Positions 13,464 to 55,949 of a stretch of DNA of 64,000 nt are shown here, piece after piece (positions within the stretch are counted from its first letter, which is position 1; each line of letters starts with the position of its first letter). A model generated the notes under the pieces. The model made no database searches, was not told the origin of the DNA, and saw only the letters and a list, made by a program, of their open reading frames with translations. The position numbers and the translations under genes were made by a program. The stretch comes from an uncultured Bacilli bacterium (GTDB taxonomy: Bacteria > Bacillota_I > Bacilli_A > RF39 > UBA660), in NCBI GenBank assembly GCA_947629235.1, contig CANRCX010000003.1, positions 9,069-73,068 on the forward strand, written 5' to 3'.

Positions 13464-13465
13464 AT

Positions 13466-14920: not shown

Positions 14921-14947
14921 ATTTTATTATAGGGAGGGACAAATGTC

Positions 14948-15511
14948 ATGTTTAACAATTATAAAGAAATAGTTACAAAGGCAATTATTGGTAAAGGAAA
15001 AAAGACATTTAAAAACGATTATGAAATTACTATAGATAAGGAAGCTGATACTGTACTTGGTTGTTGGGTTATAAATCATAAACTAAAAGGAGTTAAGGAA
15101 GATGATTATATCAAAATTAATGGAAGTTATGATATAAACATTTGGTATAGTTATGATAATAATACTAAAACTGATGTAGTTAGTAAGAAAATGTTTTATG
15201 AAGAAAAAGTACATGTTCGTATAAAAGATAACTCATCTTTAGATGATGATAGTGAAATTATAATTAGAAGTCTTAAAAATCCTACTTGTATAGATGTAAG
15301 TAATGAAGATAAAACAATTAAATATACTATATCTAAAGAACTTGGTATAGAAATAGTAGGAGATCAAAAAATAAGAATACCAGTATCAAATAATGAAGAT
15401 GATTATGATATTATTATAGATGAAGAAGAAATAAATAAAGAGATAGATAAACAAGTTAATGTTAATTATCTTGAAGATAAAGATAAAGAAAATAATGAAA
15501 ATAAACAGTGA
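14948..15511 (+). CDS. cotE: outer spore coat morphogenetic protein CotE
   Basis: YKEIVTKAIIGKGKK...LGCWVINHK...INGSYDINIWYSYDNNTKTDVV parallels B. subtilis CotE (YREIITKAVVAKGRK...GGWIINHK...YYDINVWYSYADNTKTEVV). Acidic C-terminal tail. Confidence 0.85.
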   Translation: MFNNYKEIVTKAIIGKGKKTFKNDYEITIDKEADTVLGCWVINHKLKGVKEDDYIKINGSYDINIWYSYDNNTKTDVVSKKMFYEEKVHVRIKDNSSLDDDSEIIIRSLKNPTCIDVSNEDKTIKYTISKELGIEIVGDQKIRIPVSNNEDDYDIIIDEEEINKEIDKQVNVNYLEDKDKENNENKQ

Positions 15512-15524
15512 AAACTGTTTTTTT
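15503..15524 (+). terminator. intrinsic terminator of cotE
   Basis: AAACAG tgaaaa CTGTTT followed by TTTT; includes the TGA stop. Confidence 0.55.
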
Positions 15525-15571
15525 AGTGTAATTAATTATAAATGTGATAAAATATATTTATAGGAGTATAT

Positions 15572-15952
15572 ATGAATAGAGAACAAATATTAAAAATATT
15601 AAAGAAATATAATTTTAATCCTAAAAAATATGTAGTGATTAGTGGAGCTGCAATGGTATTATATGGTTTTAGAGAAGAAACACCAGATATAGATATAGCA
15701 GTAACTAAAGAATATTATAATGAACTATTAGAAAAATATGATTGTGTACTTGAAAATATAGATAAAAATGGAAATAAAGCTTATTTAATAGATGATATTG
15801 TTAACTTTGGTACAAACTATTATTGTAGAAGTAAAGAGTATATTGAAAATATACCTGTACAAAGACTAAAAGACTTAATTGCATTAAAACAAAAATTAAA
15901 TAGAACTAAAGATAAAAAAGATTTAAAATTAATATTTGAGAAAATGAAATAG
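15572..15952 (+). CDS. hypothetical protein, possible minimal nucleotidyltransferase fold
   Basis: ISGAAMVLYGFREETPDIDIAV resembles the GS-x9-DxD nucleotidyltransferase signature. Confidence 0.4.
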   Translation: MNREQILKILKKYNFNPKKYVVISGAAMVLYGFREETPDIDIAVTKEYYNELLEKYDCVLENIDKNGNKAYLIDDIVNFGTNYYCRSKEYIENIPVQRLKDLIALKQKLNRTKDKKDLKLIFEKMK

Positions 15953-15963
15953 TAGGGAGAAAA

Positions 15964-17148
15964 ATGAAAAATAAACAACAAAGAAATATAAAAAAAATAA
16001 GTGATAGTATATTTTTAATAGTTATTACAATTATAATTGTTATTGGATTTTCTACATTATTTATGAAACCTAAAAAAAGATCTGAAGTAGAAAATAGAAA
16101 TTTAGATAAATTTGAAATTCCAACAATAAAAACATTTATTAATGGTAGCTTTCAAGATAATTTAGAAAGTGCTCTTGCAGATCAATTTATAGCAAGTAGA
16201 AAAATTAAAATAATAGCAAATAAAATATTTAATAATATTGATATAAAAAATATTAATAAAAAAATATGTGAAAATAAGTATGTTTATTTAAATACAGAAC
16301 ATGCATCTTTTGATTGTGATAATTCAATTATAAATACTCCTACAAATATAGACAATTATACTAAAAATATTAACAAGCAATTAGAATATTTTAGTAAAGT
16401 TAATACTTTAAAAGATACATATTATTATGTTATAGATAGTGGATATGCATATGACTATGAAAATCAAAAATATATAGTAGATACATTTTCAATTTTAAAA
16501 GATAATTTAAAAAATAAATATAAAATATCAAAGCTTGAAGTAAATAATTATGATGAATATAAAAATTATTTTTATAAAACAGATCATCATTGGAATTTAA
16601 ATGGTTCTTATCAAGGATATAAAGATATTATTAAAATGATTTATCCTAATGATAAAGTTTTAGTACCAGTGGGAACAAAAACAATAAAGAAATATAAATT
16701 TAATGGTAGTAATTCTAGAGCATCAAAATATATTAAATTAAATGAAGAATTTAAATATTATGATTTTGAATTACCAGAACATTATGAATATGTTAATGGA
16801 TATTTAGATAATTATGGAAATTATACTAATCCAGAAAGTGACTTAAAGCCTTATAGAAATATATATGGTATAGTGTATGGTGAAGATTATAAAGAAATAG
16901 TTTTTGATTTTAAAAATCCTAAAAAAGAAAATTTGCTTTTAATAGCATCTTCATATTCAAATCCAATTAATCGTTTAATAGCAAGTCATTTTGATAAAAC
17001 ATATGTAGTTGATTTTAGACATTATGAAAATTTTAATATTGAAGAGTATTTAAAAGCACATGATATTGATAAAATATTAGTTATAGCATCAACTGATGTT
17101 TTAATAGAAGAAGATTTTACTCTAGGGGATGATAATAATGTTATTTAG
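15964..17148 (+). CDS. DHHW-motif protein (partner of MBOAT O-acyltransferase)
   Basis: N-terminal TM segment and FYKTDHHWNLNGSYQGY motif; overlaps the MBOAT gene. Confidence 0.75.
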   Translation: MKNKQQRNIKKISDSIFLIVITIIIVIGFSTLFMKPKKRSEVENRNLDKFEIPTIKTFINGSFQDNLESALADQFIASRKIKIIANKIFNNIDIKNINKKICENKYVYLNTEHASFDCDNSIINTPTNIDNYTKNINKQLEYFSKVNTLKDTYYYVIDSGYAYDYENQKYIVDTFSILKDNLKNKYKISKLEVNNYDEYKNYFYKTDHHWNLNGSYQGYKDIIKMIYPNDKVLVPVGTKTIKKYKFNGSNSRASKYIKLNEEFKYYDFELPEHYEYVNGYLDNYGNYTNPESDLKPYRNIYGIVYGEDYKEIVFDFKNPKKENLLLIASSYSNPINRLIASHFDKTYVVDFRHYENFNIEEYLKAHDIDKILVIASTDVLIEEDFTLGDDNNVI

Positions 17149-18541
17149 TAGTTTGACATTTTTAATTATATTTTTACCTATTTTATTAATTTTATATTAT
17201 ATATCAAAAGATAAATATAGAAATATTATATTATTTATATTTTCACTGTTATTTTATGCTTGGGGTGAACCAAAATATATATTTTTGATGTTATTATCTA
17301 TTGTAATAAATTATTTTTTAGCAATATTTATTGATAAATTTAAAAGTAAAAATAATAAAAGAATTATAATGATTCTAGCAGTTATATTTAATGTATCATT
17401 ATTATTTGTATTTAAATATCTTAATTTCTTTATAACAAATATAAATAGTTTATTTAATACAAATTTAGGGTTATTAAAAGTAACACTACCAATTGGAATA
17501 AGTTTTTATACATTTCAAATATTATCTTATGTAATAGATGTATATAAAAAAGAAGTAAGTGTTCAGAAAAACATTATATCACTCGGTACTTATATTGCAT
17601 TATTTCCACAATTAATAGCAGGACCAATTGTAAGATATAGTACTATTGAAGAAGAGTTAAATAATAGAAAAGTTACATATGATAAATTTATAAGTGGAGT
17701 TAAAAGATTTATAATTGGTTTATCTAAAAAAGTAATAATAGCTAATAATATGGCTATGATAGCAGATACTATTTTTAATAGTCCAAGTGTTAGTGAATAT
17801 AATTTCTTATTAATTCTACTTGCAACACTTTCTTATACATTCCAGATATATTTTGATTTTAGTGGATACTCTGATATGGCTATTGGTTTAGGAAAAATGT
17901 TTGGATTTGAATTTTTAGAAAACTTTAATTATCCTTATATATCAAAAAGTATAACTGAATTTTGGAGAAGATGGCATATATCACTATCAACATGGTTTAG
18001 AGATTATGTATATATACCACTTGGAGGCAATAGATGTTCTAAACCAAGATGGATATTTAATACATTTATTGTATGGCTTTTAACAGGTTTATGGCATGGA
18101 GATAGTTGGAATTTTATAATATGGGGACTTTATTTCTTTGTATTATTAATGATAGAAAAATTATTTTTACATAAATTATTAGATAAATTACCAAAATTTA
18201 TTAATTGGATTTACTCATTCATATTAATTAATTTTGGATGGCTTATATTTAGAGTAGAGAATGTAAACACATTATTTACATTAATTAAAAATATATTTAC
18301 ATTTAATAAAGGAAATCTATATTTAGAAATAGCACATAATTATTATTTAATACAATATTTACCATTTTTATTATTAGCATTTATATTTAGTATGCCAATA
18401 ATTAAATATTTAGATAGTAAAATAACTAATAATAATTTTAAATCAATTGTTTCAAATATAACTTTAATTTTATTATTTATAACTTGTATTATATTTTTAA
18501 TAAATAATAGTTATAATCCATTTATATATTTTAGATTTTAA
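17138..18541 (+). CDS. MBOAT family O-acyltransferase (AlgI/DltB-like)
   Basis: MLFSSLTF start typical of AlgI-like proteins; FWRRWHISLSTWFRDYVYIPLGGNR and LLTGLWHG catalytic His motifs. The ORF track start at 17129 is 3 codons upstream. Confidence 0.85.
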   Translation: MLFSSLTFLIIFLPILLILYYISKDKYRNIILFIFSLLFYAWGEPKYIFLMLLSIVINYFLAIFIDKFKSKNNKRIIMILAVIFNVSLLFVFKYLNFFITNINSLFNTNLGLLKVTLPIGISFYTFQILSYVIDVYKKEVSVQKNIISLGTYIALFPQLIAGPIVRYSTIEEELNNRKVTYDKFISGVKRFIIGLSKKVIIANNMAMIADTIFNSPSVSEYNFLLILLATLSYTFQIYFDFSGYSDMAIGLGKMFGFEFLENFNYPYISKSITEFWRRWHISLSTWFRDYVYIPLGGNRCSKPRWIFNTFIVWLLTGLWHGDSWNFIIWGLYFFVLLMIEKLFLHKLLDKLPKFINWIYSFILINFGWLIFRVENVNTLFTLIKNIFTFNKGNLYLEIAHNYYLIQYLPFLLLAFIFSMPIIKYLDSKITNNNFKSIVSNITLILLFITCIIFLINNSYNPFIYFRF

Positions 18542-18566
18542 TGCATAAAATATATTAAAAGTCAAA

Positions 18567-18594
18567 TTGACAAATTTATAAATAGTTGTATAAT
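18567..18594 (+). promoter_or_regulatory. promoter (TTGACA-16-TATAAT)
   Basis: TTGACA 18567..18572, TATAAT 18589..18594. Confidence 0.5.
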
Positions 18595-18636
18595 AATTTT
18601 CAATCACTTAAAGTGATGAAAGGAAAACAATAATAT

Positions 18637-19671
18637 ATGCAAAATAGTAAATGTATCAAGGAATGTCTTGATAAGCTATTAAGTAGTAATGATACAGTAT
18701 TTATAGTGCCACATAATAGACCAGATTTTGATGCATTAGGAGCTTCTATTGGTATGTCTTTAATTTGTAAAAGAAATAAAAAAAGAAATTATATAGTAAT
18801 AGATGATAATTATGAAACACTTACATCTAGTACTAAGAAAATGATATATGATATAAAGTCAGATTTTGATTTAATAAAATCTGATGAAATAAATAATTTA
18901 ATAACTGATAAATCTTTGTTAATAGCAGTAGATGTAAATAAAGATTATCTAGTACCAGTAAGAAAATATTTAGAAAACTTTAATGATATTTTTGTACTTG
19001 ATCATCATTCTCCTGATGAACATACTATAAAAACTCCTTATACATTTATTGATCCAAAACTTTCTAGTACAAGTGAAGAAGTTAGTAGGTTAGTATTCCT
19101 TAATGGAGCAAAATTAACTCCAAATTATGCTAATTATTTACTTGCAGGTATTATATTAGATACTAATAAGTTAAGTAAAAATACAGCTGCTAGTACTTTA
19201 TCAGTTGCTGCAAAGCTAGTTGAAAAAGGTGCTGATGCTACTATTGCAAATAATTTATTTTTAGAAGATTATGAACATGATAGAGCAATACAAAGACTTG
19301 TTGACAATACAGATTTTCCTACATATGTTTATGCAATAGCAACAGACTCTGATAATAGTTTAAAATTATATCAATCTGAAGATATTGCTAAAGCTGCAGA
19401 TTATTTACTTAAATATAATGTAAATGCAACATTTGCAATAGCTAGAATAGATGAAGATACTATTTCTATTAGTGCAAGAGGTAAAGGAAGCATAGATGTA
19501 TCTAAAATAATGAGATTATTTGGTGGTGGTGGAAATGAATTCTCCGCAGCAGCAAGAGTAAAAGGTAAAAGTATTAGTGAAATAAAAGAAGAATTAAATG
19601 AAATATTAAATCCATCAAATTATTTAATATGTGAAAAGTTAGATAAACAATTGACACTTTCTTTAAATTAA
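18637..19671 (+). CDS. DHH/DHHA1 family phosphoesterase (NrnA/GdpP-catalytic-domain-like)
   Basis: VPHNRPDFDALGAS (motif I), VDVN, VLDHHSP (DHH), and a DHHA1 glycine motif present as FGGGGNEFSAAA. Confidence 0.7.
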   Translation: MQNSKCIKECLDKLLSSNDTVFIVPHNRPDFDALGASIGMSLICKRNKKRNYIVIDDNYETLTSSTKKMIYDIKSDFDLIKSDEINNLITDKSLLIAVDVNKDYLVPVRKYLENFNDIFVLDHHSPDEHTIKTPYTFIDPKLSSTSEEVSRLVFLNGAKLTPNYANYLLAGIILDTNKLSKNTAASTLSVAAKLVEKGADATIANNLFLEDYEHDRAIQRLVDNTDFPTYVYAIATDSDNSLKLYQSEDIAKAADYLLKYNVNATFAIARIDEDTISISARGKGSIDVSKIMRLFGGGGNEFSAAARVKGKSISEIKEELNEILNPSNYLICEKLDKQLTLSLN

Positions 19672-19791
19672 TAATTTATATGTAAAAATATGTAAAATAA
19701 AATTGTAATTAAAAAATTAAAATGATAACATATAAATATGGGTGTGGTAATATGAAGTATTTTAATTCCATAATTATATTTAAAAAATTAT

Positions 19792-19816
19792 AGAGTATTT
19801 TTGAATACTCTTTTTT
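19792..19816 (+). terminator. intrinsic terminator 18 nt upstream of the prs start (terminator of the DHH gene and/or prs leader attenuator)
   Basis: AGAGTATT tttg AATACTCT followed by TTTTT. Confidence 0.6.
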
Positions 19817-19834
19817 AGTGGAAAGGAAGAAAAA

Positions 19835-20968
19835 ATGAAAAGTCAAATTGAAAATGAAAAATTAAGACTCATGGTATTTAAAAGTGCATTAGAATTAGGA
19901 AAGAAAGTAGATAATTATTTACTTGATATGTATAATCTTGATAAAGATAAATATACATTTATAGTTCCAATTAAAGAAAACTTTTTTGAAGATGGACATT
20001 TAAAAGTAGAAATTAATGAAACTGTAAGGGGAAAAGATTTATTCATGCTAACTGATATTGGTAATTGTTCAATTGAATACAATATGCGTGGATTCATAAA
20101 TCATACAAGCCCAAATGATTTAATAGCAGAATTAAAAGATGGTATTGGAGCTTGTAGTTGTCATGCTGAAAAAGTAAATATTATAATGCCACTTTTATAT
20201 GCAGGAAGACAACATAGAAGAAATAATAGAGAAAATTTGACTTGTGGAGCTACTTTAAGAGAACTTGATAGTATGAGTAGAGTAAAGAGTTTTATTACAT
20301 TTGATGCTCATGATCAAGGAGTAGAGCATGCTATTCAAAATATGGAATTTAATAATTTTTATGCCACTAATAATATACTTGCATATTTTATAAATGATTT
20401 ATCAAAAGAAGATTTAAAAGAGTTAGTTTTCGTAGCTCCTGATAATGGAGCAACTGGAAGAAGAAATGTTTATTTAAATTCATTTAATAGTCCTTATATT
20501 AAAAGAGAAGCAGGTAGTTTTATAAAACAAAGAGATTATAATAATTTTGTTGATGGAAAATATCCAATAATATCACATGATTATTCAGGAAATAATGATT
20601 TAACAGGAAAAACTGCTATTGTAACAGATGATATGATATCAAGTGGTGGTAGTATGTTTGATGTAATAGATGAACTTAGAAAAAGAAATATAAATAAAAT
20701 ATATTTAATTGTAACTTATGCTTTATTTACAAAAGGTGTAGATATGTTTGATAAATATTATAAAGAAGGTAAATTAAATGGAGTATATACAACAAATTTA
20801 TCATATATAAATGATGAGTATAAAGATAGAGAATGGTTACATGTATGTGATTGCTCTAATACAATTGCTGAAATAATTTATAATATTCATAATGATGCAT
20901 CAATAACAAATATTTTAAGAGATAGATCAGCTCCAGTAAAATTATTAGAAAAGAAATTTAAACAATAA
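19835..20968 (+). CDS. prs: ribose-phosphate pyrophosphokinase (long form)
   Basis: ITFDAHDQGVEHA, VAPDNGATGRR, and PRPP-binding loop IVTDDMISSGGSM. Confidence 0.75.
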   Translation: MKSQIENEKLRLMVFKSALELGKKVDNYLLDMYNLDKDKYTFIVPIKENFFEDGHLKVEINETVRGKDLFMLTDIGNCSIEYNMRGFINHTSPNDLIAELKDGIGACSCHAEKVNIIMPLLYAGRQHRRNNRENLTCGATLRELDSMSRVKSFITFDAHDQGVEHAIQNMEFNNFYATNNILAYFINDLSKEDLKELVFVAPDNGATGRRNVYLNSFNSPYIKREAGSFIKQRDYNNFVDGKYPIISHDYSGNNDLTGKTAIVTDDMISSGGSMFDVIDELRKRNINKIYLIVTYALFTKGVDMFDKYYKEGKLNGVYTTNLSYINDEYKDREWLHVCDCSNTIAEIIYNIHNDASITNILRDRSAPVKLLEKKFKQ

Positions 20969-21047
20969 AAAGTGTAAACAATAAAAACAAATTCAAAATA
21001 TAAAAACATTTATGATATAATTATTTATATTATAGAGGTGTATGAGT

Positions 21048-21659
21048 ATGAATAATTGTCCTAGATGTGGTTCAAAAGTAAATGTAGGAGAATCTTTTTG
21101 TACTAATTGTGGAATGAAACTTCCAATACAAAATAGTACATTAAATCAAAATACAAATTCAAGTGTTAATACAGATACAAACATAGTAATAGATAGTGAA
21201 TTATTATCTGCATATATTGGAAGTAATGTTGAAAAATTTACAGATGGTGGCTTTTCTTCTTGTGCATTCTTCTTTGCATTTATGTATGCGTTTTATAGAA
21301 AAATGTGGTTATTAGGTATTACTTGGTTTGTTGCTTTATTTATATTTTCAAACTTTTTACCATCATATTATGAAATAATTGCTTTTATAATTAGTATAGT
21401 GTTAGGAAATAAATTTAAAACAATATATATTAAGTATGTTTATGAACAAATAAATAAAATAATAAGACAAAATCCATATTCATCACGTGAAGAAATAATT
21501 GAAATATGTAGAAAAAAAGGTGGAACAAGTGTAATTCATATATTAATAATATGTGCTATAATTTTAGTTGCTTTTGTTATAGCTTTTATTCATAATAGTT
21601 CTGAAAAAGACTTAAATACTTCTGAATTTATAATAAATGAAATTGAAAGAGGTGTTTAA
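21048..21659 (+). CDS. zinc-ribbon plus DUF2628-like membrane protein
   Basis: N-terminal CPRCG-x11-CTNCG zinc ribbon, then FFFAFMYAFYRKMWLLG typical of DUF2628. ATG 21048 has better Shine-Dalgarno spacing than 21042. Confidence 0.6.
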   Translation: MNNCPRCGSKVNVGESFCTNCGMKLPIQNSTLNQNTNSSVNTDTNIVIDSELLSAYIGSNVEKFTDGGFSSCAFFFAFMYAFYRKMWLLGITWFVALFIFSNFLPSYYEIIAFIISIVLGNKFKTIYIKYVYEQINKIIRQNPYSSREEIIEICRKKGGTSVIHILIICAIILVAFVIAFIHNSSEKDLNTSEFIINEIERGV

Positions 21660-21661
21660 TT

Positions 21662-22444
21662 ATGTTAAATGAATTATTACTATTTGTTGTTTCTATTTTA
21701 CCAGTATTTTTAATAGGATTATATATTTATAAAAAAGATAAAGAAAAAGAACCTTTAAGATTATTAGTTAAATTATTTCTAGGTGGATTTGCATCTTGTA
21801 TTTTAACATTAATTATAAGTATGGTAATGAATCTTATTCCAATATTCGCAGCAGATACAAGCAATTTAAATTTATTTGAATTAATTATTAATGTTTTTAT
21901 AGGAGTAGCATTAGTTGAAGAGTTTTCTAAATGGATAATGGCTTATTTAATTTCTTATAATGAAGAAGCTTTTGATTATTTATATGATGCGATTTTGTAT
22001 TGTGTATTTGTATCTCTAGGATTTGCTTGCTTTGAAAATTTATTATATGTAGCTGAAAATGGTCTTTTTGTAGGAATAATTAGAGCAATATCAGCAGTAC
22101 CTGGTCATGCATGTGATGGTATATTTATGGGATATTATTTAGGATTATCAAAACTTGGTAGTTTAAATAATAGAAAAGATTTAAAAACTAAATATCTTAT
22201 ATTAAGTATAATTGTTCCAACAATAACTCATGGTATTTATGATTATTGTTTATTTAGTGGAAAAGTAATATTTATAATATTATTCTTTGTATTTATTATA
22301 CTAATGTATATTTATGTTATTAAAAAAGTTAAAAAAGTAGCAAATATTAATAGAAAAATGAAATATAAAAATAATTATTGTCCTAATTGTGGACATATTG
22401 TTGATGGAAATTTTTGTCCAGTATGTGGAAGAAAAAATGAATAA
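21662..22444 (+). CDS. PrsW family intramembrane metalloprotease with C-terminal zinc ribbon
   Basis: LVEEFSKW, CFENLLY, HACDGIFMGYY, THGIYDY motifs; C-terminal CPNCG-x8-CPVCG. Confidence 0.75.
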   Translation: MLNELLLFVVSILPVFLIGLYIYKKDKEKEPLRLLVKLFLGGFASCILTLIISMVMNLIPIFAADTSNLNLFELIINVFIGVALVEEFSKWIMAYLISYNEEAFDYLYDAILYCVFVSLGFACFENLLYVAENGLFVGIIRAISAVPGHACDGIFMGYYLGLSKLGSLNNRKDLKTKYLILSIIVPTITHGIYDYCLFSGKVIFIILFFVFIILMYIYVIKKVKKVANINRKMKYKNNYCPNCGHIVDGNFCPVCGRKNE

Positions 22445-22450
22445 TGAAAT

Positions 22451-22475
22451 AAAGGCTATTAAATGGCCTTTTTGT
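22451..22475 (+). terminator. intrinsic terminator after the PrsW gene
   Basis: AAAGGC ... GCCTTT stem followed by a T-run. Confidence 0.5.
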
Positions 22476-22504
22476 TTGACAAAATCATAAGAATTTGCTA
22501 TAAT
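22476..22504 (+). promoter_or_regulatory. consensus promoter (TTGACA-17-TATAAT) of the four-gene operon
   Basis: TTGACA 22476..22481, 17-nt spacer, TATAAT 22499..22504; GGGGGT Shine-Dalgarno upstream of ATG 22530. Confidence 0.65.
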
Positions 22505-22529
22505 ATCAAATACTTTTATAGGGGGTATA

Positions 22530-23456
22530 ATGGAAAATATTTTTTTAGAAGATTTATTTAAACAAAAATTAGAGCAAGGTATAGATACTAATGAATTAAT
22601 AGTAAAATTAGTTAATAAAGATATATTATCAGTTAAAACATTAATTAATTATGCAATTGAAACAGGAAATAGAGATTATCTTCATTTTTTAATATGTAAT
22701 TTTAATGGAATTCCAATAGAACAATTAGTTAGTGCTTATATTGATACACTTGGTACAACTCTTGATGATACTACTCAAATTACAAGAGTTTTAGATGCAA
22801 TTTTATTAAAATTAAAAACTGATAATACACAAACTTTAAGAAATTTATTTGCAAAATTATTTTTAGAATTTATAAGTTATGATCTTTTTTTACCTCATCC
22901 ATATGCTAATATATCAATATCACTTGCATATTATAATCATAGAGATTCAGTTCAGATATTTGATTTAATATATAATGTAGATATAAATATTTTAAATGAT
23001 AGAGAAAAATATGGATTAATGGTCTTTTTAAGTAGTCGTGATAACCATGAATATAAAGAAAAACTTATGGAATATAAAGATGAGTTTGTTAAGGTAATAA
23101 ATAAAGATTATAAAGAAGAAAGTGATAATACTATTAGAAAAATAGAAGATCCATTTTTAAATGCTGTATATAGTTTATATAATAGTATAGAAGTATCAAG
23201 ATTATTAAATGAAAAAAATGAACAATTTAAACAAGAATTAAAAGGCTTAATGGCTTCATATATGGATGAACTAAATAAAGAATTAAATAAAGATTATGAA
23301 AATGCTAATAATTTAGTAAATAAAAATACAATTATAGAAAACTATATGATTAAATTAATTCATTTATGTGATGAATATAGATTAAATAGTAATAATTATA
23401 ATAGCTATAATGAAACTTTTAATGAATATAAATATGTACTTAAAAATATGTGCTAA
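22530..23456 (+). CDS. hypothetical protein (helical, no recognised domain), operon gene 1
   Basis: 308-aa ORF, first gene after the consensus promoter. Confidence 0.55.
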   Translation: MENIFLEDLFKQKLEQGIDTNELIVKLVNKDILSVKTLINYAIETGNRDYLHFLICNFNGIPIEQLVSAYIDTLGTTLDDTTQITRVLDAILLKLKTDNTQTLRNLFAKLFLEFISYDLFLPHPYANISISLAYYNHRDSVQIFDLIYNVDINILNDREKYGLMVFLSSRDNHEYKEKLMEYKDEFVKVINKDYKEESDNTIRKIEDPFLNAVYSLYNSIEVSRLLNEKNEQFKQELKGLMASYMDELNKELNKDYENANNLVNKNTIIENYMIKLIHLCDEYRLNSNNYNSYNETFNEYKYVLKNMC

Positions 23457-23482
23457 TATTTTATATATAAAAGGGGGTTACA

Positions 23483-24799
23483 ATGCAAATATATTATACA
23501 GATAAATTATTAATAGATATAAATAATATTAAGAATTTGCAAGCTGTTTGGTTAGAAAATATAACTCAAGCAAAAATAAATAATAAATTTATATATTATC
23601 CAAGTCTATGTATTTCTTATGATGGTGGTAAGTTTTTATCACTTATGTATAATGAAAAATATTTTGATTCATTTGTAAAAAAAGTAACAGAAGTTTATAA
23701 TGATGAAAAAGATAATGTTTATGAAGATAAATTATTAGATCCATTTAATTTACATTCTAAAATAAATATAGATGATTATACAAAAGAAGTGTTAGAAAAA
23801 GGATATTTATCTAATTTAAATGAACTATATAAATTTTATGAAAATAAGTTTTCATATAATAACTCATTATTATTTGAAAATAATGAACTAGAATTTATTA
23901 TGCCTATTATAAAATATCATTTAGAAGATTTCTTTAAACATACAGATACAGTATTTAAAATGAATGATTCTATTTATGGATATAGAACACTTTATAATAC
24001 TAATGCAATTATTGATGGAAAAGAAAAAACTATATTATTAAACTATAATAAAGAAAATGAAAATGAATATTCAATAAAAATATCAAATATATTTGAAAAT
24101 AATGATGAGACAGAAATTAATATTAAATTTGATAATTATAAAATAAAAGTTACTATTGAAAATAAACAATATAATTTATATTCAGAATATGAATATTTAA
24201 TGAATGAACAAAATATTAAACAAATAATATCAATATATAAAAATTCATTAATATTACATCATTCTAATAAAGATTTAGATAGTACAGATAATGTAAATAA
24301 AAATATAACTGATTTTGATGCTTCTACATCATTTAAATGGTTTATATTACCATGGAATGCTTTATGGGGTATTAATAATAAAGTAGAAAATATAAATGAA
24401 AATGAAAAAGTATTACAAATGCATTCAATGTATTTATTAGTAAAAAATAATTCATTTAATAAAAGAGAAAATTATACAAATAAAAAAATAATAAAAGAAA
24501 CACCTAATACAAAAGGTATGCCACTTGTATTAGATGAAATGAATAAAAATACAACATGTATATGTATAAGTCCAAATGATAATTTATATGTAATTGAAAC
24601 AGCTTTTTTAGATACTGATAATTCAAATGGATATTATAAAGAAAATTTAAATAATAAATATTTTTATCATACTTTTATAAGTGATGATTTAAATAAAGAA
24701 ATAGAAAGATTAGTAAATATAACAAATAATGATGTTATTGAAAAACCTGATTTATTTAATAAATTAAAAATATTAGGTTTAGTAAAGGGGGATAAATAA
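23483..24799 (+). CDS. hypothetical protein, operon gene 2
   Basis: 438-aa ORF with AGGGGG Shine-Dalgarno; 1-nt gap to the next gene. Confidence 0.55.
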   Translation: MQIYYTDKLLIDINNIKNLQAVWLENITQAKINNKFIYYPSLCISYDGGKFLSLMYNEKYFDSFVKKVTEVYNDEKDNVYEDKLLDPFNLHSKINIDDYTKEVLEKGYLSNLNELYKFYENKFSYNNSLLFENNELEFIMPIIKYHLEDFFKHTDTVFKMNDSIYGYRTLYNTNAIIDGKEKTILLNYNKENENEYSIKISNIFENNDETEINIKFDNYKIKVTIENKQYNLYSEYEYLMNEQNIKQIISIYKNSLILHHSNKDLDSTDNVNKNITDFDASTSFKWFILPWNALWGINNKVENINENEKVLQMHSMYLLVKNNSFNKRENYTNKKIIKETPNTKGMPLVLDEMNKNTTCICISPNDNLYVIETAFLDTDNSNGYYKENLNNKYFYHTFISDDLNKEIERLVNITNNDVIEKPDLFNKLKILGLVKGDK

Positions 24800-24800
24800 A

Positions 24801-27002
24801 ATGGATTTTAGAGGAATGTTAAGAGCAATTAGAAATTCACAAGTATTAGATTATGATGGTAAAGAATATTTACTTAATTATGTTAATGGAATCAAAAATG
24901 GAACAAGAGAAAATGAATTTTTTGATTTTGATATTTTGAATGCTTTTATACTTAAATTTGCAAATGGAAATATTAGTTGTGCAGATGAAACACAAACACA
25001 AGCATCAGTAATAGAAGATAAATTAAAAAAAATTATTAATAATATTAAAATACAATTACCACTTGGAGTTAAAACTGAAGATTATGAAAGTATTAAAGCT
25101 AGTATTATAAATACAAATGGTGAATTTAATAAAAAATTATTTTTATTATTAGAAAACAAATATGATTATACACAAATATTAAATTTAATTAATGAAAAAT
25201 ATAATTCATATGAAAAAGAAGTAATATCAAATTATGCAGTTAATGTTTGTCCATATTGTGTAAACCAAAAACAATTAAAAGCAGAAATAATATCATTTAT
25301 TAATGGATTAGATAATCTAGCTGGAAGTGTTAATGAATATAGTGAAAAAAGATTAGCAGAAGCTAAAAAGAGAGTAGGAATATATCCACTTGATGAAGCA
25401 AGTATTGCAAATATTTCATTAACTGCTTCAAGAGCACAAAGTTTAATTAAAAAATTAGAAAATATGGAAACTAGAGTAAATACTTTTGAAGAAAGAATTA
25501 AAAGAGAAACTGATACTGGAATTAAAACAATAGATAAACATATTAAAGATTCTTCTTCTGAATTACAAATAATTGTTAATGCAGAAAGAGATAGAATAGT
25601 TAAAGTATTGGATGAATATTTAAAAGATTTAGAAACTGCTCTTAAGAAAAATAGTGATATTATATTTAATCAAATACTTGAAAATGCACAAAATGAACTT
25701 AAAACAATAAAATTATATGCTGAGAGTTTAAGTACAACTACTACAGCTGACTTAATTAAAATAAAATCATCTACTGAAGAAAGTATTAATGCAATGAAAG
25801 AATATATTCAAGATGAACCAATGATAAAGAATCTTGTAGAAAGTTATACTTCATCAAATGAATTTAAAACAGCAATGCTTCAAATGAGTCAAAATAAACC
25901 AAAAGTTATTGCAGTAGATAGTGTTGAAAGTCCATCTAAAGTTATTTTAAATCCAATATCTAATTCATCTTTAGAACCATTGCCTGCTGTAGTAATACCA
26001 GTAGATAGTATTGATAGAACTATACTTCCTTCATATGATACAAAAATACCATTTAAAGAAAGATATGAAAAAGTATTAAAAAGACTTGAAGAAAGAGAAA
26101 AAAATGGAGAAGTATTTCATAAATCAATAAAAGAAATAATTACTAATATTATGGTAGGAGATTGGGTACATTTATATGGACCATCTGGAACAGGAAAAAG
26201 TACACTTATTGAACAAGCAATTGATTTAATAGGTTCTGAAATAGTAGATAATGGAAAAATACTTGATAGTTATTCTATCCTTGCATATAATGATCCACAT
26301 GGTAGATTTAGACCAACTCCAACATTTGATGCAGTATTAAAAGGAAAAGCATTGTTATTTGAAGAAATGGATAGTGGGGATCCTGATACTGAAGTTGTTT
26401 TAGGAAGTATATATTCTAAAATGAAAAAATTATATAAAAATCCAGATCAAATTTTATATACAACATTTGGAGAAAGAATATCTACGCCAATCCATCCTAA
26501 CTTTAGAATGCTTGCTACATCAAATACTAATGGTGGAGGAGCAAATAGTGTATATTCTGCTCGTAGTAAAATGGATGAAGCTATATTACAAAGACTAATA
26601 CCAACAGAAGTTGATTATGATAAAAATATAGAAAAGAAAATATTTAATGGTTATACTGCTTGGAATAAAGTATTTGAACACTTTAGAGATGCATGTAATA
26701 GATATGCTAAAACTGAATTACATTTAGAATCAACTCCAGGTGTTATAACAACTAGAGATGCATCTGATATAGTTGATTATATTAATCAAAAATGTAAAGG
26801 AGTAGACCAAATAATTAGAGAAAAATTTATTCAAACTAAGAATAGAAATTATTTAGAAAGTATTTATTCTTATTTAGAAAATATATATCATTTAGAAAGT
26901 GAATTATCAAATCCACTAGAAGCTCAGATGGATCCATCAACTGTAGATGAAAAACAATTAGCTAAATGTTTAATGTATAGATGTAAAAATCCAAAATTTT
27001 AG
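24801..27002 (+). CDS. coiled-coil protein with C-terminal AAA+ ATPase module of the CobS/MoxR (AAA_5) type, operon gene 3
   Basis: Walker A LYGPSGTGKST (about 26178..26204), Walker B ALLFEEMDSG, sensor-1 region FRMLATSNTNGGGANSVYSARSKMDEAILQRL resembling the CobS pattern FRlfATaNT-G-GD...Y.G...N.A..DR. About 430 aa of K/E/L-rich N-terminal region. Confidence 0.65.
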   Translation: MDFRGMLRAIRNSQVLDYDGKEYLLNYVNGIKNGTRENEFFDFDILNAFILKFANGNISCADETQTQASVIEDKLKKIINNIKIQLPLGVKTEDYESIKASIINTNGEFNKKLFLLLENKYDYTQILNLINEKYNSYEKEVISNYAVNVCPYCVNQKQLKAEIISFINGLDNLAGSVNEYSEKRLAEAKKRVGIYPLDEASIANISLTASRAQSLIKKLENMETRVNTFEERIKRETDTGIKTIDKHIKDSSSELQIIVNAERDRIVKVLDEYLKDLETALKKNSDIIFNQILENAQNELKTIKLYAESLSTTTTADLIKIKSSTEESINAMKEYIQDEPMIKNLVESYTSSNEFKTAMLQMSQNKPKVIAVDSVESPSKVILNPISNSSLEPLPAVVIPVDSIDRTILPSYDTKIPFKERYEKVLKRLEEREKNGEVFHKSIKEIITNIMVGDWVHLYGPSGTGKSTLIEQAIDLIGSEIVDNGKILDSYSILAYNDPHGRFRPTPTFDAVLKGKALLFEEMDSGDPDTEVVLGSIYSKMKKLYKNPDQILYTTFGERISTPIHPNFRMLATSNTNGGGANSVYSARSKMDEAILQRLIPTEVDYDKNIEKKIFNGYTAWNKVFEHFRDACNRYAKTELHLESTPGVITTRDASDIVDYINQKCKGVDQIIREKFIQTKNRNYLESIYSYLENIYHLESELSNPLEAQMDPSTVDEKQLAKCLMYRCKNPKF

Positions 27003-27012
27003 GAGATAAGTT

Positions 27013-28011
27013 ATGAAAAATAAAGAAGACTTATTACCACATAATTATCTACGATATAAAGATAATATATTACCACCTAGAACTATAGAAATAAATGATC
27101 AAGAATATAAACTTTTTATGGCAACTTTTGAAAATTTAGAAAATTTATATAATTATTTAAAAAGTAATCCTAAAATAAATAAATCAACATTTATTCGTGA
27201 AGCAAGTATATCAAATCCATCTCATTTTTCTGGAAAACCATATTCAGAAGCTTTAGAAGATTTAATAAAACCAGCTAGTAAAGAGTATACAGAATTATTA
27301 AAATTACAAGAAAAAATAAATTATATTGCTCAAATAGAAATGGATAAATTTAAAACATATCAAAAAGTAACAGGTGGACACTTAAATACACTTGCATATT
27401 CTAAAGGAAGCCCACTTTGTTATGAAAAAAGACAAAGAATTAATGTTCCTAAGTTTGTAAGATTAAATTTAGTTTTATCTTATAATATAACAGAATTTGC
27501 ATCATCATTAATAAATAGAGCAGTAATATTATTAAATATAATTAATGCATTAGAAAATTCTGGATATAATGTTGATATTAATGCATTTTCATTAGATAAA
27601 AATACATCAGTAAATGATAAAGAAATAGCTTATATAAATATTCAAATGAAAAGACATGGAGAAAAAGTAAATTTAGAAAATTTAAGTAAAATATTATTTA
27701 ATATAGAATTTAGAAGAAGAATATTATTTAGAGTTTTAGAAACATTAGATGTTAATAATAGTTGGGGTAGTGATTATGGAAATGTATGTAATAAAGAAAT
27801 AGCTCAAAATGTATTACATATAGAAAAAAATGATTTATATTTTGGTTATCCATATGAAATGAATATCTTGGGTTTTGATTTAATAAAAGATTTTAAAAAT
27901 GCGATTAATGCATTAAATTTAGAAGATAAAATTGATGTAGATAGATCAATTGAAGATTTAAATAATGAAGAATTAGTATTAAAAATAAAAGACTTACAAA
28001 GAAAGTTTTAA
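27013..28011 (+). CDS. hypothetical protein, possible CobT-like vWA fold lacking the MIDAS motif, operon gene 4
   Basis: KFVRLNLVLSYNITEFASSLINRAVILLNIINALENSGYNVDINAFS aligns by eye to the CobT vWA segment TVVTLLIDNSGSMRG...ILARTLERCGVKVEILGFT, but DxSxS is replaced by LSYNI. Confidence 0.35.
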   Translation: MKNKEDLLPHNYLRYKDNILPPRTIEINDQEYKLFMATFENLENLYNYLKSNPKINKSTFIREASISNPSHFSGKPYSEALEDLIKPASKEYTELLKLQEKINYIAQIEMDKFKTYQKVTGGHLNTLAYSKGSPLCYEKRQRINVPKFVRLNLVLSYNITEFASSLINRAVILLNIINALENSGYNVDINAFSLDKNTSVNDKEIAYINIQMKRHGEKVNLENLSKILFNIEFRRRILFRVLETLDVNNSWGSDYGNVCNKEIAQNVLHIEKNDLYFGYPYEMNILGFDLIKDFKNAINALNLEDKIDVDRSIEDLNNEELVLKIKDLQRKF

Positions 28012-28033
28012 GACAAATCTTAAAACTTTTTTT
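28004..28033 (+). terminator. intrinsic terminator of the four-gene operon
   Basis: AGTTTTAAG acaaat CTTAAAACT perfect 9-bp stem followed by T6; includes the stop codon. Confidence 0.7.
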
Positions 28034-29722: not shown

Positions 29723-30898
29723 ATGAATTGTAAAAAATGTGGAACTCTTTTATCTCCTACAGATACAGTTTGTAGTAATTGTGGAGAACCTGTTAATGCT
29801 CAACCAACGTTAACACCAGAAGTAAATATTCAACCAGAAGTACAAAATGTAAATCCAATGCCTACTGAACAACCAGTACAAGCAGATGTAAATAATTTAC
29901 CTACAATGGATAGTGTTATTCAAAGTGAGACTGCCCCAGTAGTAGGAGCTGTAGAAACACCTGTTAATCCAATTTCAACTGTTGATCTTAATGCAGCAAA
30001 TATGAATCCAACACCAGTTACAGAAACTCCAGTATCTGTAACACCAACTATAGATACTAATGTAACTAATCCAGTAAGTGAAGTTGCAAGTGCACCTGTA
30101 CAACCAATGAGTAGTCCAACACCAGAACCAGTAAGTGCACCAAATCCTATGGGAAATCAAATGAATATGCAACAAAATAATATGACTCAAGAACAACCAA
30201 AAAATAATAAAACATTATTTATTGTAATAGTAGTTGTTTTAGTAGTAGCTATTGCTGTACTTGGATACTTTATAGTAAGTAAAAAACTTACAAATAACAA
30301 CACAAATAATACAAACAACAATACAAATAATAACACAAACACAAATACAAATACACCAACAAATACAAATACTAACAATAATCAAGTATCAGAAAATTCG
30401 TTAAAATATGAAGATTTTGAATTTAGTATTCCTAAAAATTATGAAGGAGAAGTAACATCTAGTCGTATACAACTTATAAATAATACTGACAGATTAATAG
30501 TTGTAGTTGTTCCACATGAATATGTATTATTTGAAGATTTTAAAGCAATTAAAGATGACTATAAAAATAGTTTTTCAACATCAGATTATAATATAACAAG
30601 TCTTACTGAAAAAAATGTTTCTAATATTGATTGGATAGTATTAACTGGTTCTTTCAATGCAGAAGGTGTAGAAATTCCATGTATGTTTGCAGTAGCTGCT
30701 TTAGGACAATATCATACGATAGAAATTGGTGTCTTAAATTATGGAAGCAAATCAAATGATGAAATATTAAATGATATGGCTCAAATTGTTAATTCAGCTA
30801 AATATAAAGGAACAGTTAATTTCTCACCAAGTGAAGAAAAGAATCCAGTTGAATTTAGTGAAGAAATAAAAAATATTAAAAATTCTAGTTTAGATTAA
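29723..30898 (+). CDS. zinc-ribbon / single-TM protein with P/T-rich and N/T-repeat linkers
   Basis: MNCKKCG-x11-CSNCG, P/T/V-rich 130 aa, TM LFIVIVVVLVVAIAVLGYFIV, (N/T)n tract, about 170-aa C-terminal domain. Confidence 0.6.
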   Translation: MNCKKCGTLLSPTDTVCSNCGEPVNAQPTLTPEVNIQPEVQNVNPMPTEQPVQADVNNLPTMDSVIQSETAPVVGAVETPVNPISTVDLNAANMNPTPVTETPVSVTPTIDTNVTNPVSEVASAPVQPMSSPTPEPVSAPNPMGNQMNMQQNNMTQEQPKNNKTLFIVIVVVLVVAIAVLGYFIVSKKLTNNNTNNTNNNTNNNTNTNTNTPTNTNTNNNQVSENSLKYEDFEFSIPKNYEGEVTSSRIQLINNTDRLIVVVVPHEYVLFEDFKAIKDDYKNSFSTSDYNITSLTEKNVSNIDWIVLTGSFNAEGVEIPCMFAVAALGQYHTIEIGVLNYGSKSNDEILNDMAQIVNSAKYKGTVNFSPSEEKNPVEFSEEIKNIKNSSLD

Positions 30899-30956: not shown

Positions 30957-30984
30957 TTAATAAAAGAATGGTAGTGTGATATTA

Positions 30985-32967
30985 ATGAATTGTAAAAAAT
31001 GTGGTAAACAAATAAATAGTACATCAAAATTTTGTCCATATTGTGGTGAATCAATAACAGATAATAGTTTTTTATCAAAGACACAAAAAATAATAATTAT
31101 TTCTTTATTATCAGTAATAATTGTGTTTTTATCAATAATATTATTTTTGCCTGATAAGTATTTCAAAAAAGATGATACAAGAACTATAATGATTTATATA
31201 GTTGGAAGTGATTTAGAAACAGATGCTGGAATTGTAACATATGATCTTTCAGTAATAGATCCTGCTAAGATTGATTTAACTAAAACTAATATATTATTGT
31301 ATACTGGTGGTACAACTAAATGGCAAAATTTTATAAGTAATGAAGAAAATCAAATCTATATATTAAAAGAAAATGGTTTTGAAAAAATTGAATCTCAAAG
31401 TCAATTAAACATGGGAGATCCAGATACATTAACAAACTTTATGAAATATTGTTATGATAATTATAAAACGAGTAGATATGATTTAGTTCTTTATGATCAT
31501 GGTGGAGCAATAGATGGAGCTATATATGATGATTTTACTGATGATAATTTATCATTAGAAGATATGGAAACAGCTTTAAAAAATAGTCCATTTAATAAAA
31601 ATAATAAATTAGAAGCAGTTCTTTTTAGAACATGTTTAAATGGTACTATTGAAATTGCTAATGTATTTAATGATTATTCAGAGTATTTAATAGCTTCTGA
31701 AGAAACTTCTTGGGGATCACCTTATACTGATGTTTTAGGTTTTTTAAATGATCTTATACCAGAAGATAATGGATTAGAGTTTGGAAAGAAATTTGTTGAG
31801 TCATATGATGAACAAATGAAAATATTAAATAGGACTGGTGATATTGTACAAACTTACTCTGTTATTGATTTAACAAAAATAGATGATTTAAATGCAAAGT
31901 TGGATAGCTATATAAAATCACTTGATATTAATAAAAATTATAAAAATATAGTTCAAATACGTAGTAGTATTTATCAATATGGTGTATCAGGTAATGATGG
32001 TAGTTATGATATGATTGATTTATATGAATTCATTGATAAAACATCAAAATATGCTACTGAAGATGCAAGTGATTTATTAAAAATAATAGAAGAAACTGTA
32101 AAATATAATAGTTCAAATAGAAATGATGCACATGGATTATCAATATATTTTCCTTTTAATGGTGTAAAAAATGCAAAAGCTTATTTCTTAAGAGTTTATA
32201 ATAATTTAGATTACTCAAACGAATATAAAAATTTTATAGAAACTTTTAATAGTATGCAACAATCTCCAGATGGTTATACATTTAGTTTTTCTAATAATAA
32301 ATTAACTTCTTCTGCTTCTAATAATAGTTTTTCTATTACATTAACTAATGAACAATTAAATACATTCTCAGCTGGTTTATTTGCAATATTTGAAAAAGAT
32401 CCAGAACATCCAAATTATTATAAACCAATATTTAGTTCAGATGATACAACATTAGAAAATAATGTATTAAAAGCCAACATTAATAATAAAATGTTAAAAA
32501 TAAAAGATGATGATGGAAAAGAATATTATGTGCTTACATATTATAGAAAAAATGGTAATATTACAAGAAGAGTTGGTGGATTCTTATACAAAAAAGATTC
32601 AAAAATATTTGATGAAGGATATATGAATTCAGTAGACTTTATTATATCAGATGATAAAGGTACACCATTTATTTCAGCAGCAAAATTAATAAGTAAAAAT
32701 GATAGAATAAATGGTACATTATTAAATTTAGAAGATTACTATGATCTTGAAATTACATCAAACAGTTTTGGAATTTTAGATAGTAAGGGAAATGTAATTG
32801 ATGATTGGGAAGCATCTCCAGTAGTTACTGGATATTCAACTAATCTTAATGAAATAGAATTAAAAAATTCAGGACTTGATAAAGGGGATAATTATTATGG
32901 ATTATTTATATTAAAAGATATTTATGGTAATAGTAGTTATTCAAAATTAGTAAAGATAGGAGAGTAA
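30985..32967 (+). CDS. zinc-ribbon-anchored membrane protein with clostripain-like (peptidase C11) domain
   Basis: MNCKKCG-x11-CPYCG, TM segment, then IMIYIVGSDLE, LVLYDHGGAIDG (catalytic His) and VLFRTCLNGTIE (catalytic Cys) as in C11 peptidases. The ORF track start at 30976 is a GTG 3 codons upstream. Confidence 0.7.
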   Translation: MNCKKCGKQINSTSKFCPYCGESITDNSFLSKTQKIIIISLLSVIIVFLSIILFLPDKYFKKDDTRTIMIYIVGSDLETDAGIVTYDLSVIDPAKIDLTKTNILLYTGGTTKWQNFISNEENQIYILKENGFEKIESQSQLNMGDPDTLTNFMKYCYDNYKTSRYDLVLYDHGGAIDGAIYDDFTDDNLSLEDMETALKNSPFNKNNKLEAVLFRTCLNGTIEIANVFNDYSEYLIASEETSWGSPYTDVLGFLNDLIPEDNGLEFGKKFVESYDEQMKILNRTGDIVQTYSVIDLTKIDDLNAKLDSYIKSLDINKNYKNIVQIRSSIYQYGVSGNDGSYDMIDLYEFIDKTSKYATEDASDLLKIIEETVKYNSSNRNDAHGLSIYFPFNGVKNAKAYFLRVYNNLDYSNEYKNFIETFNSMQQSPDGYTFSFSNNKLTSSASNNSFSITLTNEQLNTFSAGLFAIFEKDPEHPNYYKPIFSSDDTTLENNVLKANINNKMLKIKDDDGKEYYVLTYYRKNGNITRRVGGFLYKKDSKIFDEGYMNSVDFIISDDKGTPFISAAKLISKNDRINGTLLNLEDYYDLEITSNSFGILDSKGNVIDDWEASPVVTGYSTNLNEIELKNSGLDKGDNYYGLFILKDIYGNSSYSKLVKIGE

Positions 32968-37414: not shown

Positions 37415-37528
37415 ATTATTTTCCTTTCTTTTTAATATATTATAATTAAAAGTAAAATTCATGTCAAATAAATTTATCTATCATAATATAGCAAATTATG
37501 TTATAATACACCTTGGAGTTGATGTAGT

Positions 37529-55872: not shown

Positions 55873-55949
55873 GGGGAATTAGCTCAGTTGGCTAGAGCAT
55901 CTGCCTTGCACGCAGGAGGTCGCGGGTTCAAGTCCCACATTCTCCACCA
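55873..55949 (+). tRNA. tRNA-Ala (anticodon UGC), CCA encoded
   Basis: Cloverleaf by hand: acceptor GGGGAAT/ATTCTCC with the G3-U70 Ala identity pair, D arm GCTC/GAGC, anticodon stem TCTGC/GCAGG with loop CTTGCAC, T arm GCGGG-TTCAAGT-CCCAC (one C-A mismatch), discriminator A, CCA. Confidence 0.9.

Follow-up and report, generated by a model that had tools for sequence, protein, structure and literature searches.

Pairs of a MoxR-class AAA+ ATPase and a protein with a von Willebrand factor A (vWA) domain act as chaperone and co-chaperone on a third component, which they restructure (PMC7159879). Among them are CobS-CobT, NorQ-NorD, CbbQ-CbbO and RavA-ViaA, and the third protein is CobN for the first, NorB for the second and Rubisco for the third. 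Ternary MoxR-vWA systems made of an AAA+ protein, a vWA protein, a distinct third protein (VMAP, iSTAND, FtsH and beta-propeller types) and variable accessory genes have been described as conflict systems of multicellular actinobacteria and cyanobacteria (Kaur et al. 2020, PMC7159879). In eukaryotes, midasin (Rea1) joins an AAA_5 motor of six AAA domains to a vWA-type domain through a long linker, all within a single polypeptide and with a true metal ion-dependent adhesion site (MIDAS). The Ter/TelA stress gene sets also include vWA proteins (TerY/TerF), and TelA has been considered alongside vWA proteins as a stress component beneath the membrane (PMC7824862).

A gene cassette of this general kind was found in the stretch of DNA analyzed here (the window, 64,000 nucleotides (nt) from an uncultured Bacilli bacterium), where four same-strand open reading frames (ORFs), genes 1 to 4, follow each other with gaps of 26, 1 and 10 nt. 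Genes 2, 3 and 4 form a conserved triad that encodes, in this order, a protein of unrecognised fold, an AAA_5 ATPase and a vWA-like protein. A system of an AAA_5 motor, a vWA-type adaptor and a third protein is already known as a kind; the triad differs from it in its stalked motor, its MIDAS-less adaptor of the DUF7192 family and the fold of its third subunit. The reading that we favor, and to which we give about an even chance of being correct, is that genes 2-4 encode a lineage-specific, vertically inherited protein-remodelling machine of the AAA+/vWA type, with a role in cation or envelope stress as the preferred assignment.

The compared loci comprised the contexts of gene 3 homologues together with 26 loci from species-representative genomes, and were analyzed by BLAST and ORF clustering. 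The order gene 2-gene 3-gene 4 is kept in 30 of 30 complete loci, with ORFs that touch, nearly touch or overlap, and in all of them the gene 2 homologue lies directly upstream of the gene 3 homologue. The conserved unit consists of three genes and not of four. The first-pass annotation, made from the window sequence, had described a self-contained four-gene operon and proposed a search for its co-occurrence across related genomes; the transcription signals of the window genome agree with the operon (see below), whereas only genes 2-4 recur in relatives, gene 1 being absent from them. All hosts of the triad are uncultured low-GC (22-34%) Bacilli or 'Firmicutes', represented by metagenome-assembled genomes from rabbit, mouse, goat and human gut, and spore genes (cotE, gerA) are present in some of these genomes.

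Gene 3 (positions 24801-27002, forward strand, 733 aa) encodes the ATPase. Its AAA_5 core (residues 431-615; 26091-26645) matches PF07728 with 31.8 bits (gathering threshold 22; residues 458-584, E = 1.7e-7) and the phage 'CobS' family phrog_249 with an E-value of 2.7e-26. The core contains the Walker A motif GPSGTGKS (26178-26201), the Walker B motif LLFEEMD (26352-26372), the sensor-1 residue N575 and the conserved arginines R588 and R598. In 30 gene 3 homologues K466, E522, D524, N575, D592, E593 and R598 are invariant, R588 and R652 are each kept in 29, and the first acidic residue of Walker B is Asp in 26 and Glu in 4 (a homology search with gene 3 returned at least 9 proteins, the family being under-represented in that set). 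With the Walker A Lys, the Walker B Glu, the sensor-1 Asn and several Arg invariant, the protein should hydrolyse ATP. A PDB profile search with the AAA module retrieved midasin as the best-scoring match, together with CobS (8.9e-9), CbbQ (2e-5) and NorQ (3e-3); the midasin score is summed over six AAA_5 domains, the best single domain reaching only ~27 bits. These matches uphold the AAA_5 assignment made in the first-pass annotation, and the motifs listed there (the two Walker motifs and FRMLATSNT...DEAILQRL) are present with their key residues invariant in the family. Putative insert-length segments (helix-2 and pre-sensor-1 β-hairpin) could be seen by eye only, in the gene 3 alignment. The protein falls far below the equivalog cutoffs for CobS (TIGR01650, 17.5 bits against 558.55) and for GvpN (TIGR02640, 32 bits against 266.8); no gvp genes were seen nearby, and neither the window nor 35 related loci hold CobN- or CobT-family genes.

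In a further difference from the MoxR-class/vWA pairs, the AAA_5 core of gene 3 is preceded by a long N-terminal extension with a coiled coil. Residues 1-170 (24801-25310) stand out in the conservation profile as a region conserved separately within the family; they gave no match in Pfam, and a profile of residues 1-200 gave none in the PDB. Residues ~170-340 (25309-25820) form a coiled-coil-like stalk, where a crude heptad score peaks at 200-330 and where weak matches are to coiled-coil families only (Apolipoprotein at 215-335, JetC/MukB at 172-332 and Exonuc_VII_L at 212-334). The ~430 residues of coiled coil initially proposed for this protein are in this way reduced to the stalk, residues 1-170 being a separate conserved region. 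Downstream of the core, a helical, lid-like C-terminal region (26646-27002) carries a conserved TTRDA motif (residues 650-654).

Gene 4 (27013-28011, forward strand, 332 aa) is a member of DUF7192 (PF23822; 75.7 bits against a gathering threshold of 27, E = 4.9e-21) and of phrog_1909 (E = 8.3e-20). Its homology search gave 87 clusters, with homologues of 300-365 aa that contain the DUF7192 domain only, and its most conserved motif is EFxRRILFRVLE (residues 232-243). The AlphaFold model (predicted local distance difference test, pLDDT, 89; predicted template modelling score, pTM, 0.83) shows a vWA-like core at roughly residues 137-301 (27421-27915). The best Foldseek match of the model is the vWA domain of NorD in the NorQ-NorD complex (9qh6_G, E = 4.4e-4, probability 0.99), and nearly all further matches are vWA domains as well (Ku70/80, Sec23/24, Rpn10, vWF A1 and factor B); the sequence profile gave no PDB match. 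A closer inspection of the family alignment showed that the MIDAS motif DxSxS...T...D is absent, the consensus after strand β1 being LSYxWGTS with no conserved Asp. The earlier description of gene 4 as a vWA-like protein without MIDAS is supported on both counts, and its alignment by eye to CobT gives way to membership in a named Pfam family whose pairing with an AAA ATPase is also present in phages.

Gene 2 (23483-24799, forward strand, 438 aa), the first gene of the triad, occupies the place that CobN, NorB or Rubisco takes in the described systems. Its homology search gave 48 clusters and an exhaustive hidden Markov model search 261 representative clusters of similar length, which indicates a family that is real but confined. 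The model (pLDDT 84.7, pTM 0.78) consists of a small N-terminal α/β region and a large β-rich body, for which Foldseek found no significant match (best E-values 0.012 in the PDB and 0.003 in BFVD, with template modelling (TM) scores of at most 0.21). No sequence family was found in Pfam (E ≤ 1) or PADLOC, the PDB profile search was without match and phages hold no homologue. The initial statement that gene 2 shows no recognisable motif is upheld. The invariant residues are mostly aromatic, Gly or Pro and do not show the Cys/His/Asp pattern of a metal site.

The genes 3-4 core, as judged by sequence similarity, shares ancestry with an AAA/DUF7192 pair of lytic Firmicutes phages (PHROGs 249 and 1909). 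A tblastn search with gene 4 recovered 259 phage records, of which 235 are Staphylococcus Kayvirus, 22 are mycobacteriophages and one is a Clostridium phage. In the Kayvirus A5W, ORF029 (AAA ATPase, 372 aa) adjoins ORF028 (DUF7192) in the same order as genes 3 and 4, with 27% identity to gene 3 (E = 5e-21) and 27% identity to gene 4 (E = 2e-12), respectively; the Kayviruses K and G1 are further carriers of the pair. In Clostridium phage CS266P3 the two genes are adjacent in reversed order, and the ATPase shares 29% identity with the gene 3 module (hhalign probability 99.95). In mycobacteriophage Whirlwind, DUF7192 has no adjacent large ORF able to encode such an ATPase. The phage pair is thus like the triad in its homologous, adjacent ATPase and DUF7192 genes, but the phage ATPases (~370 aa) lack the ~430-aa N-terminal domain and coiled coil, and no gene 2 homologue accompanies them.

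The three genes appear to have evolved together. Pairwise identities of genes 2, 3 and 4 across loci correlate with r = 0.91-0.94, and their synonymous divergence (dS) is comparable to that of the neighboring der or thrS. The ratio of nonsynonymous to synonymous divergence (dN/dS) is 0.21-0.33 for gene 2, the fastest-evolving subunit, 0.16-0.28 for gene 3 and 0.08-0.16 for gene 4, against 0.03-0.10 for Der and ThrRS; the triad is under purifying selection, and positive selection, considered as an alternative, is not supported by these values. The flanking genes in relatives are housekeeping genes (der, thrS, uvrB/uvrA, relA/dtd/gmk, and penicillin-binding protein and ABC transporter genes), and synteny is kept within subclades, as in der-c4-triad or ABC-TelA-triad. 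At the species level, gene 1 adjoins prsW in 8 of 8 contigs from other samples that encode an identical PrsW protein, and gene 4 adjoins the TsaC-type gene in 3 of 3 contigs from other samples that encode an identical TsaC-type protein; in these same-species contigs with a flanking gene (8 via PrsW, 3 via TsaC-type) no presence/absence polymorphism of the cassette was seen, a variable presence between close strains having been named beforehand as a point to check. GC content is ~22% throughout the window and flat (0.20-0.25) without a compositional break at the cassette, which rules out a compositional island. Taken together, co-evolution, dS, dN/dS, synteny and same-species contigs are those expected of a unit that is inherited vertically and constrained to a moderate degree, and not of a mobile island.

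The slot just upstream of gene 2 differs by lineage and holds nothing, small ORFs, a TelA-family gene or gene 1. It is empty in at least 11 loci, where a terminator and a strong sigma-A-like promoter lie 35-55 nt before gene 2, and it holds two small ORFs in L001, the locus of the closest gene 3 relative.

The variability of this slot is one of the observations that bring to mind a nucleoside triphosphate-dependent conflict system (anti-phage or abortive infection) of the MoxR-vWA ternary type, in which the role of sensor or effector would fall to gene 2 and that of accessory modules to the genes that vary upstream (gene 1, small ORFs, TelA), a possibility raised in the first-pass annotation that we regard as unlikely. 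Threat sensing by MoxR-vWA ternary systems in which the third component varies has been proposed and, recently, demonstrated (PMC7159879; PMC13622651). The sharing of the AAA/DUF7192 pair with lytic phages would agree with the phage-host exchange typical of conflict genes, and the rapid evolution of gene 2, together with rates of all three genes several-fold above those of Der or ThrRS, would also be expected. Two loci add to this picture: in L001 an AbiEii toxin gene and a reverse transcriptase gene lie next to the triad, on its upstream side (L001:3672-7150), and in L011 a second, paralogous and shorter AAA_5 (577 aa, 44 bits) plus DUF7192 (297 aa) pair stands immediately upstream of the full triad (L011:1511-4140). 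However, 29 of 30 loci have no defence neighbors, the triad occupies stable chromosomal positions among housekeeping genes with the dS of its neighbors, dN/dS is well below 1, and neither a compositional island nor presence/absence polymorphism was detected. PADLOC-DB 2.0 gave no significant match (best E-values 0.0012-0.02, on P-loop or coiled-coil segments only), and Pfam and NCBIfam searches of the four proteins revealed no nuclease, protease, TIR or other effector domain. As gene 2 has no Pfam match, none of the third-component families of the described ternary systems was detected in it; those systems also differ from the triad, whose context is stable and not island-like, in the C-terminal effector domains that gene 4 lacks, in the uniform length of gene 2 homologues and in their multicellular hosts, the triad residing in small low-GC gut Bacilli. 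Stable position, vertical-looking inheritance, the lack of effector domains and the lack of presence/absence polymorphism lead us not to favor the conflict reading.

Two features of related loci bear instead on cation and envelope stress. In five loci of a distant subclade the stop codon of a TelA-family gene overlaps or abuts the start of gene 2, forming an operon TelA-gene 2-gene 3-gene 4 (TelA-family genes at L032:3258-4547, L033:3231-4541, L034:3443-4621, L035:2268-3458 and L036:3292-4617). The L034 and L035 members match PF05816 along almost its entire length (36 and 43 bits, respectively; gathering threshold 30), and the other three are homologous by BLAST clustering and individually below that threshold. 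Members of the TelA family are associated with resistance to tellurite and envelope stress. The translational coupling makes the triad resemble the Ter/TelA gene sets by gene context alone; no TerB, TerC, TerD or TerY is present at those loci and the window operon has no TelA.

The second feature is a conserved ~150-nt leader ending in an intrinsic terminator, which lies between a sigma-A-like promoter and the gene 2 homologue in L004 (8505-8660), L017 (4065-4230), L021 (4070-4235), L026 (4430-4590) and L028 (4020-4165). Its conserved strands are GGGAGUAGUU, (U)CGUCAnnACG, CCGG and GAACAAGACUUUU, and in an alignment of 22 sequences two helices, the closing helix P1 and an internal one (P3), are supported, with compensatory changes in 8 pairs. 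As read from the sequence, the 3' strand of P1 is at the same time the 5' arm of the terminator, so a ligand-stabilised P1 would give read-through and the logic would be of the ON type. The leader appears to resemble the yybP-ykoY aptamer, which has GGGAGUAG and CAAGAC as conserved strands. A pattern search for GGGAGUAGUU...RAGACUUU returned at least 120 further metagenome instances (L037-L156), of which the GC-richer members stand in front of P-type ATPase genes and, as judged by eye, genes resembling Na/Ca exchangers, and the AT-rich ones, like those at the triad, precede SPFH/Band_7, PfkB, AdoMet decarboxylase, lipoprotein and unknown genes. Rfam model RF02617 (SSRC10) matched the L028 triad leader with an E-value of 0.0018, far below its gathering threshold, and RF00080 (Mn2+ riboswitch) matched L042, a GC-richer metagenome instance, with an E-value of 0.011 (15.7 against 45 bits); L017 and L028 gave no RF00080 match at E ≤ 10. 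The leader as a canonical Mn riboswitch was not accepted, RF00080 being far below threshold. The yybP-ykoY element switches expression on in response to Mn(II)/Ca(II) (PMC11672702), and in S. pyogenes SSRC10 precedes a gene for a putative calcium transporter (PMC3675131). The leader may be a riboswitch subclass or variant missed by current Rfam models, and the RF02617 'SSRC10 sRNA' and the leader may be the same cis-element.

A Mn2+/Ca2+-riboswitch-like leader before the triad in five loci, with its GC-richer form in front of P-type ATPase genes and, by eye, Na/Ca-exchanger-like genes, would also be in keeping with a metal or cofactor insertion system in the sense of CobST-CobN, NorQD-NorB and CbbQO-Rubisco, a chelatase or metallochaperone in which gene 2 would be a metalloprotein or metal carrier loaded or unloaded at high Mn2+/Ca2+. 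The closest single-domain relatives of gene 3 with a solved structure are indeed CobS, CbbQ and NorQ, with which it shares the AAA_5 clade, and the best fold match of gene 4 is NorD. We nevertheless consider this assignment improbable: gene 4 has no MIDAS, the CobS score of gene 3 is a small fraction of the cutoff, the invariant residues of gene 2 are not of the kind expected at a metal site, no CobN-, NorB- or Rubisco-like gene, no chelatase or nitric oxide reductase gene and no recognisable metalloprotein partner lies near the triad, and both the riboswitch nature of the leader and its ligand are presumptive. We hold it to be very improbable that the triad derives from an assembly chaperone of phages, domesticated to help build a large cellular structure such as the spore coat or envelope, with gene 2 as a structural subunit. 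In favor of this reading, genes 3 and 4 have phage homologues, a role as chaperones of virion assembly has been proposed for viral MoxR-vWA pairs (PMC7824862), and gene 2 is β-rich like many structural proteins; a homologue of cotE, the gene for an outer spore coat morphogenetic protein, is found two genes before the triad in L007 and L008, and in the window one lies 7 kb upstream of the cassette (14948-15511). Against it, gene 2 has neither a phage homologue nor a structural match to virion proteins, no other phage genes occur near the triad, close proximity to cotE is confined to one lineage, and the window promoter is sigma-A-like and not of a sporulation-sigma type.

The pairing of an AAA_5 ATPase with a vWA-like protein, its co-evolution with gene 2 and the published behavior of MoxR-vWA pairs make a three-part remodelling machine the best supported interpretation. 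In the arrangement that we infer, the motor would be gene 3: its AAA_5 module, of the CobS/MoxR class, most likely forms a ring, and the N-terminal domain and the coiled-coil stalk would serve to dimerise or tether it, or to recruit partners. Gene 4 would act as a vWA-like co-chaperone or adaptor docking on the ring, as NorD, CbbO and CobT do; since its MIDAS site is absent, contact with the partner would be made by a protein surface, for which the invariant RR...E helix is a candidate, and not by a metal-bridged acidic residue. Gene 2 would be the client or specificity subunit that is remodelled, assembled or released by ATP hydrolysis, and gene 1 a species-specific addition to the transcript. 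The AAA_5 motor linked with a vWA-type domain recalls midasin, from which the triad differs in being split over separate bacterial proteins, with a single AAA_5 module and no true MIDAS. A response to cation or envelope stress is favored by the TelA coupling and the Mn2+/Ca2+-riboswitch-like leader; this condition is a hint taken from the context of relatives and not from the window.

Several observations weigh against this remodelling-machine interpretation. The TelA coupling and the leader are each found in just 5 of ~30 loci and neither is present in the window, where a regular expression and the covariance model R1 found no copy of the leader and where the operon has a strong, constitutive-looking promoter without leader. 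No gathering-level Rfam match was obtained in the five triad loci, nor in 20 metagenome loci for RF00080, and the very mixed genes downstream of the leader in metagenomic contigs make its ligand uncertain. The TM-scores of gene 4 to vWA domains are low (~0.2), so that the fold match is local, and by sequence gene 4 matches none of the vWA Pfam families, DUF7192 being the only match at E ≤ 1. Gene 2 could also be an effector rather than a client.

No mention of DUF7192 was found in the literature search and the triad is undescribed as far as the searched literature goes, in line with the first-pass remark that the association was not recognised as a described one and with the lack of a significant PADLOC match. 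A bolder proposal, which we make tentatively and hold to be unlikely as a whole, is that the triad represents an undescribed class of AAA_5/vWA-like ternary machine (new-fold third subunit, stalked motor) dedicated to cation or envelope stress in uncultured gut Bacilli. In some species it would be controlled by a divergent yybP-ykoY-type switch whose regulon extends beyond transporters to SPFH genes and the triad, and an exchange of its core with lytic phages (Staphylococcus phage K, for example) would have taken place, in which the pair would manipulate the same host process.

In the window genome the four genes look like one transcription unit, as suggested by promoter, terminator, gaps and flanks. 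The cassette lies between prsW (PF13367) and a Sua5/YciO/YrdC (TsaC-type) gene, both as originally read. An intrinsic terminator of prsW (22451-22471, forward strand; a 9-bp stem followed by a T run in the scan) separates the cassette from upstream transcription and is directly followed by a sigma-A-type promoter, TTGACA-17-TATAAT with an extended -10 TG (22476-22504, forward strand), which is the sole 12/12 site in 21.5-29 kb. Exact TTGACA-17-TATAAT sites number 3 in the 64-kb window against 0.18 expected, the other two being at 37439-37467 and 63009-63037 on the reverse strand, and weaker promoter-like sites show no excess (80 found against 83 in shuffled sequence). A near-consensus site (TTGATA-17-TATAAT, 11/12) was also seen at 26263-26291, inside the AAA module of gene 3 and ~720 nt upstream of gene 4. 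The end of the unit is marked by an intrinsic terminator at 27998-28033 (forward strand), whose 16-bp AT-rich hairpin and U run overlap the stop codon of gene 4; with a folding energy of -14 kcal/mol (z = -6.33), none of 200 shuffles is equally stable. A simple terminator scanner missed this hairpin because its stem is AT-rich. The gaps, promoter and terminator given in the first-pass annotation were all recovered.

Gene 1 (22530-23456, forward strand, 308 aa) is co-transcribed by position. Searches of Pfam, NCBIfam, PHROG and PADLOC found no family for it, as had been anticipated, and no homologue was detected in the 35 related loci, no match in the phage collection by tblastn and no close relative in the metagenome scan; it is a singleton in the cluster look-up. 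Gene 1 is a species-specific orphan outside the conserved system, to which the earlier annotation had assigned it. Paralogy between the upstream gene families (gene 1, c4, c5 and c16) and gene 2 was ruled out (hhalign probability ≤ 1%), and hhalign gave no match of gene 1 to the other upstream families either.

Other features were observed around the triad in relatives and in the window. A ~620-aa gene, c4, is located between der and the triad in L004 (4726-8498, two copies) and also upstream in L012, L013, L015, L016, L017, L021 and L025. Its evolution is very rapid (dN/dS 0.34-0.55), with identities of 52-63% against 91-99% for Der in the same comparisons. It was not counted as a member of the system, as a terminator and a promoter separate it from gene 2, and a transglutaminase-like assignment was dropped, its Cys...His...Asp motif being seen by eye only, without Pfam support. 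Downstream of the triad in L001, five to six paralogous ~555-aa genes with a faint WG_beta_rep signal occupy positions 13231-22163. In the window, zinc-ribbon motifs (CPxCG...CxxCG) occur in neighboring membrane or secreted proteins (21042-21659, 22350-22444, 29723-30898 and 30976-32967), C-terminal in PrsW and N-terminal in the other three, which include a clostripain (C11) peptidase. Further RNA features are a class B RNase P RNA (45878-46218), a tRNA (55873-55946) and, directly downstream of that tRNA, a T-box leader (55990-56175).

Pairs of an AAA_5 ATPase and a vWA protein drive metal insertion, Rubisco activation, ribosome maturation and threat signalling, and it is the third partner that sets the task; in the triad this partner has a confident model, and no relative with a solved structure could be detected for it. 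Concrete conditions under which a phenotype may be sought, Mn2+/Ca2+ or envelope stress, are given by the TelA coupling and the leader. The same motor/adaptor pair is also carried, as yet uncharacterised, by the Staphylococcus phage K group of well-studied therapeutic phages, and a function found for either the phage or the bacterial pair would annotate the other.

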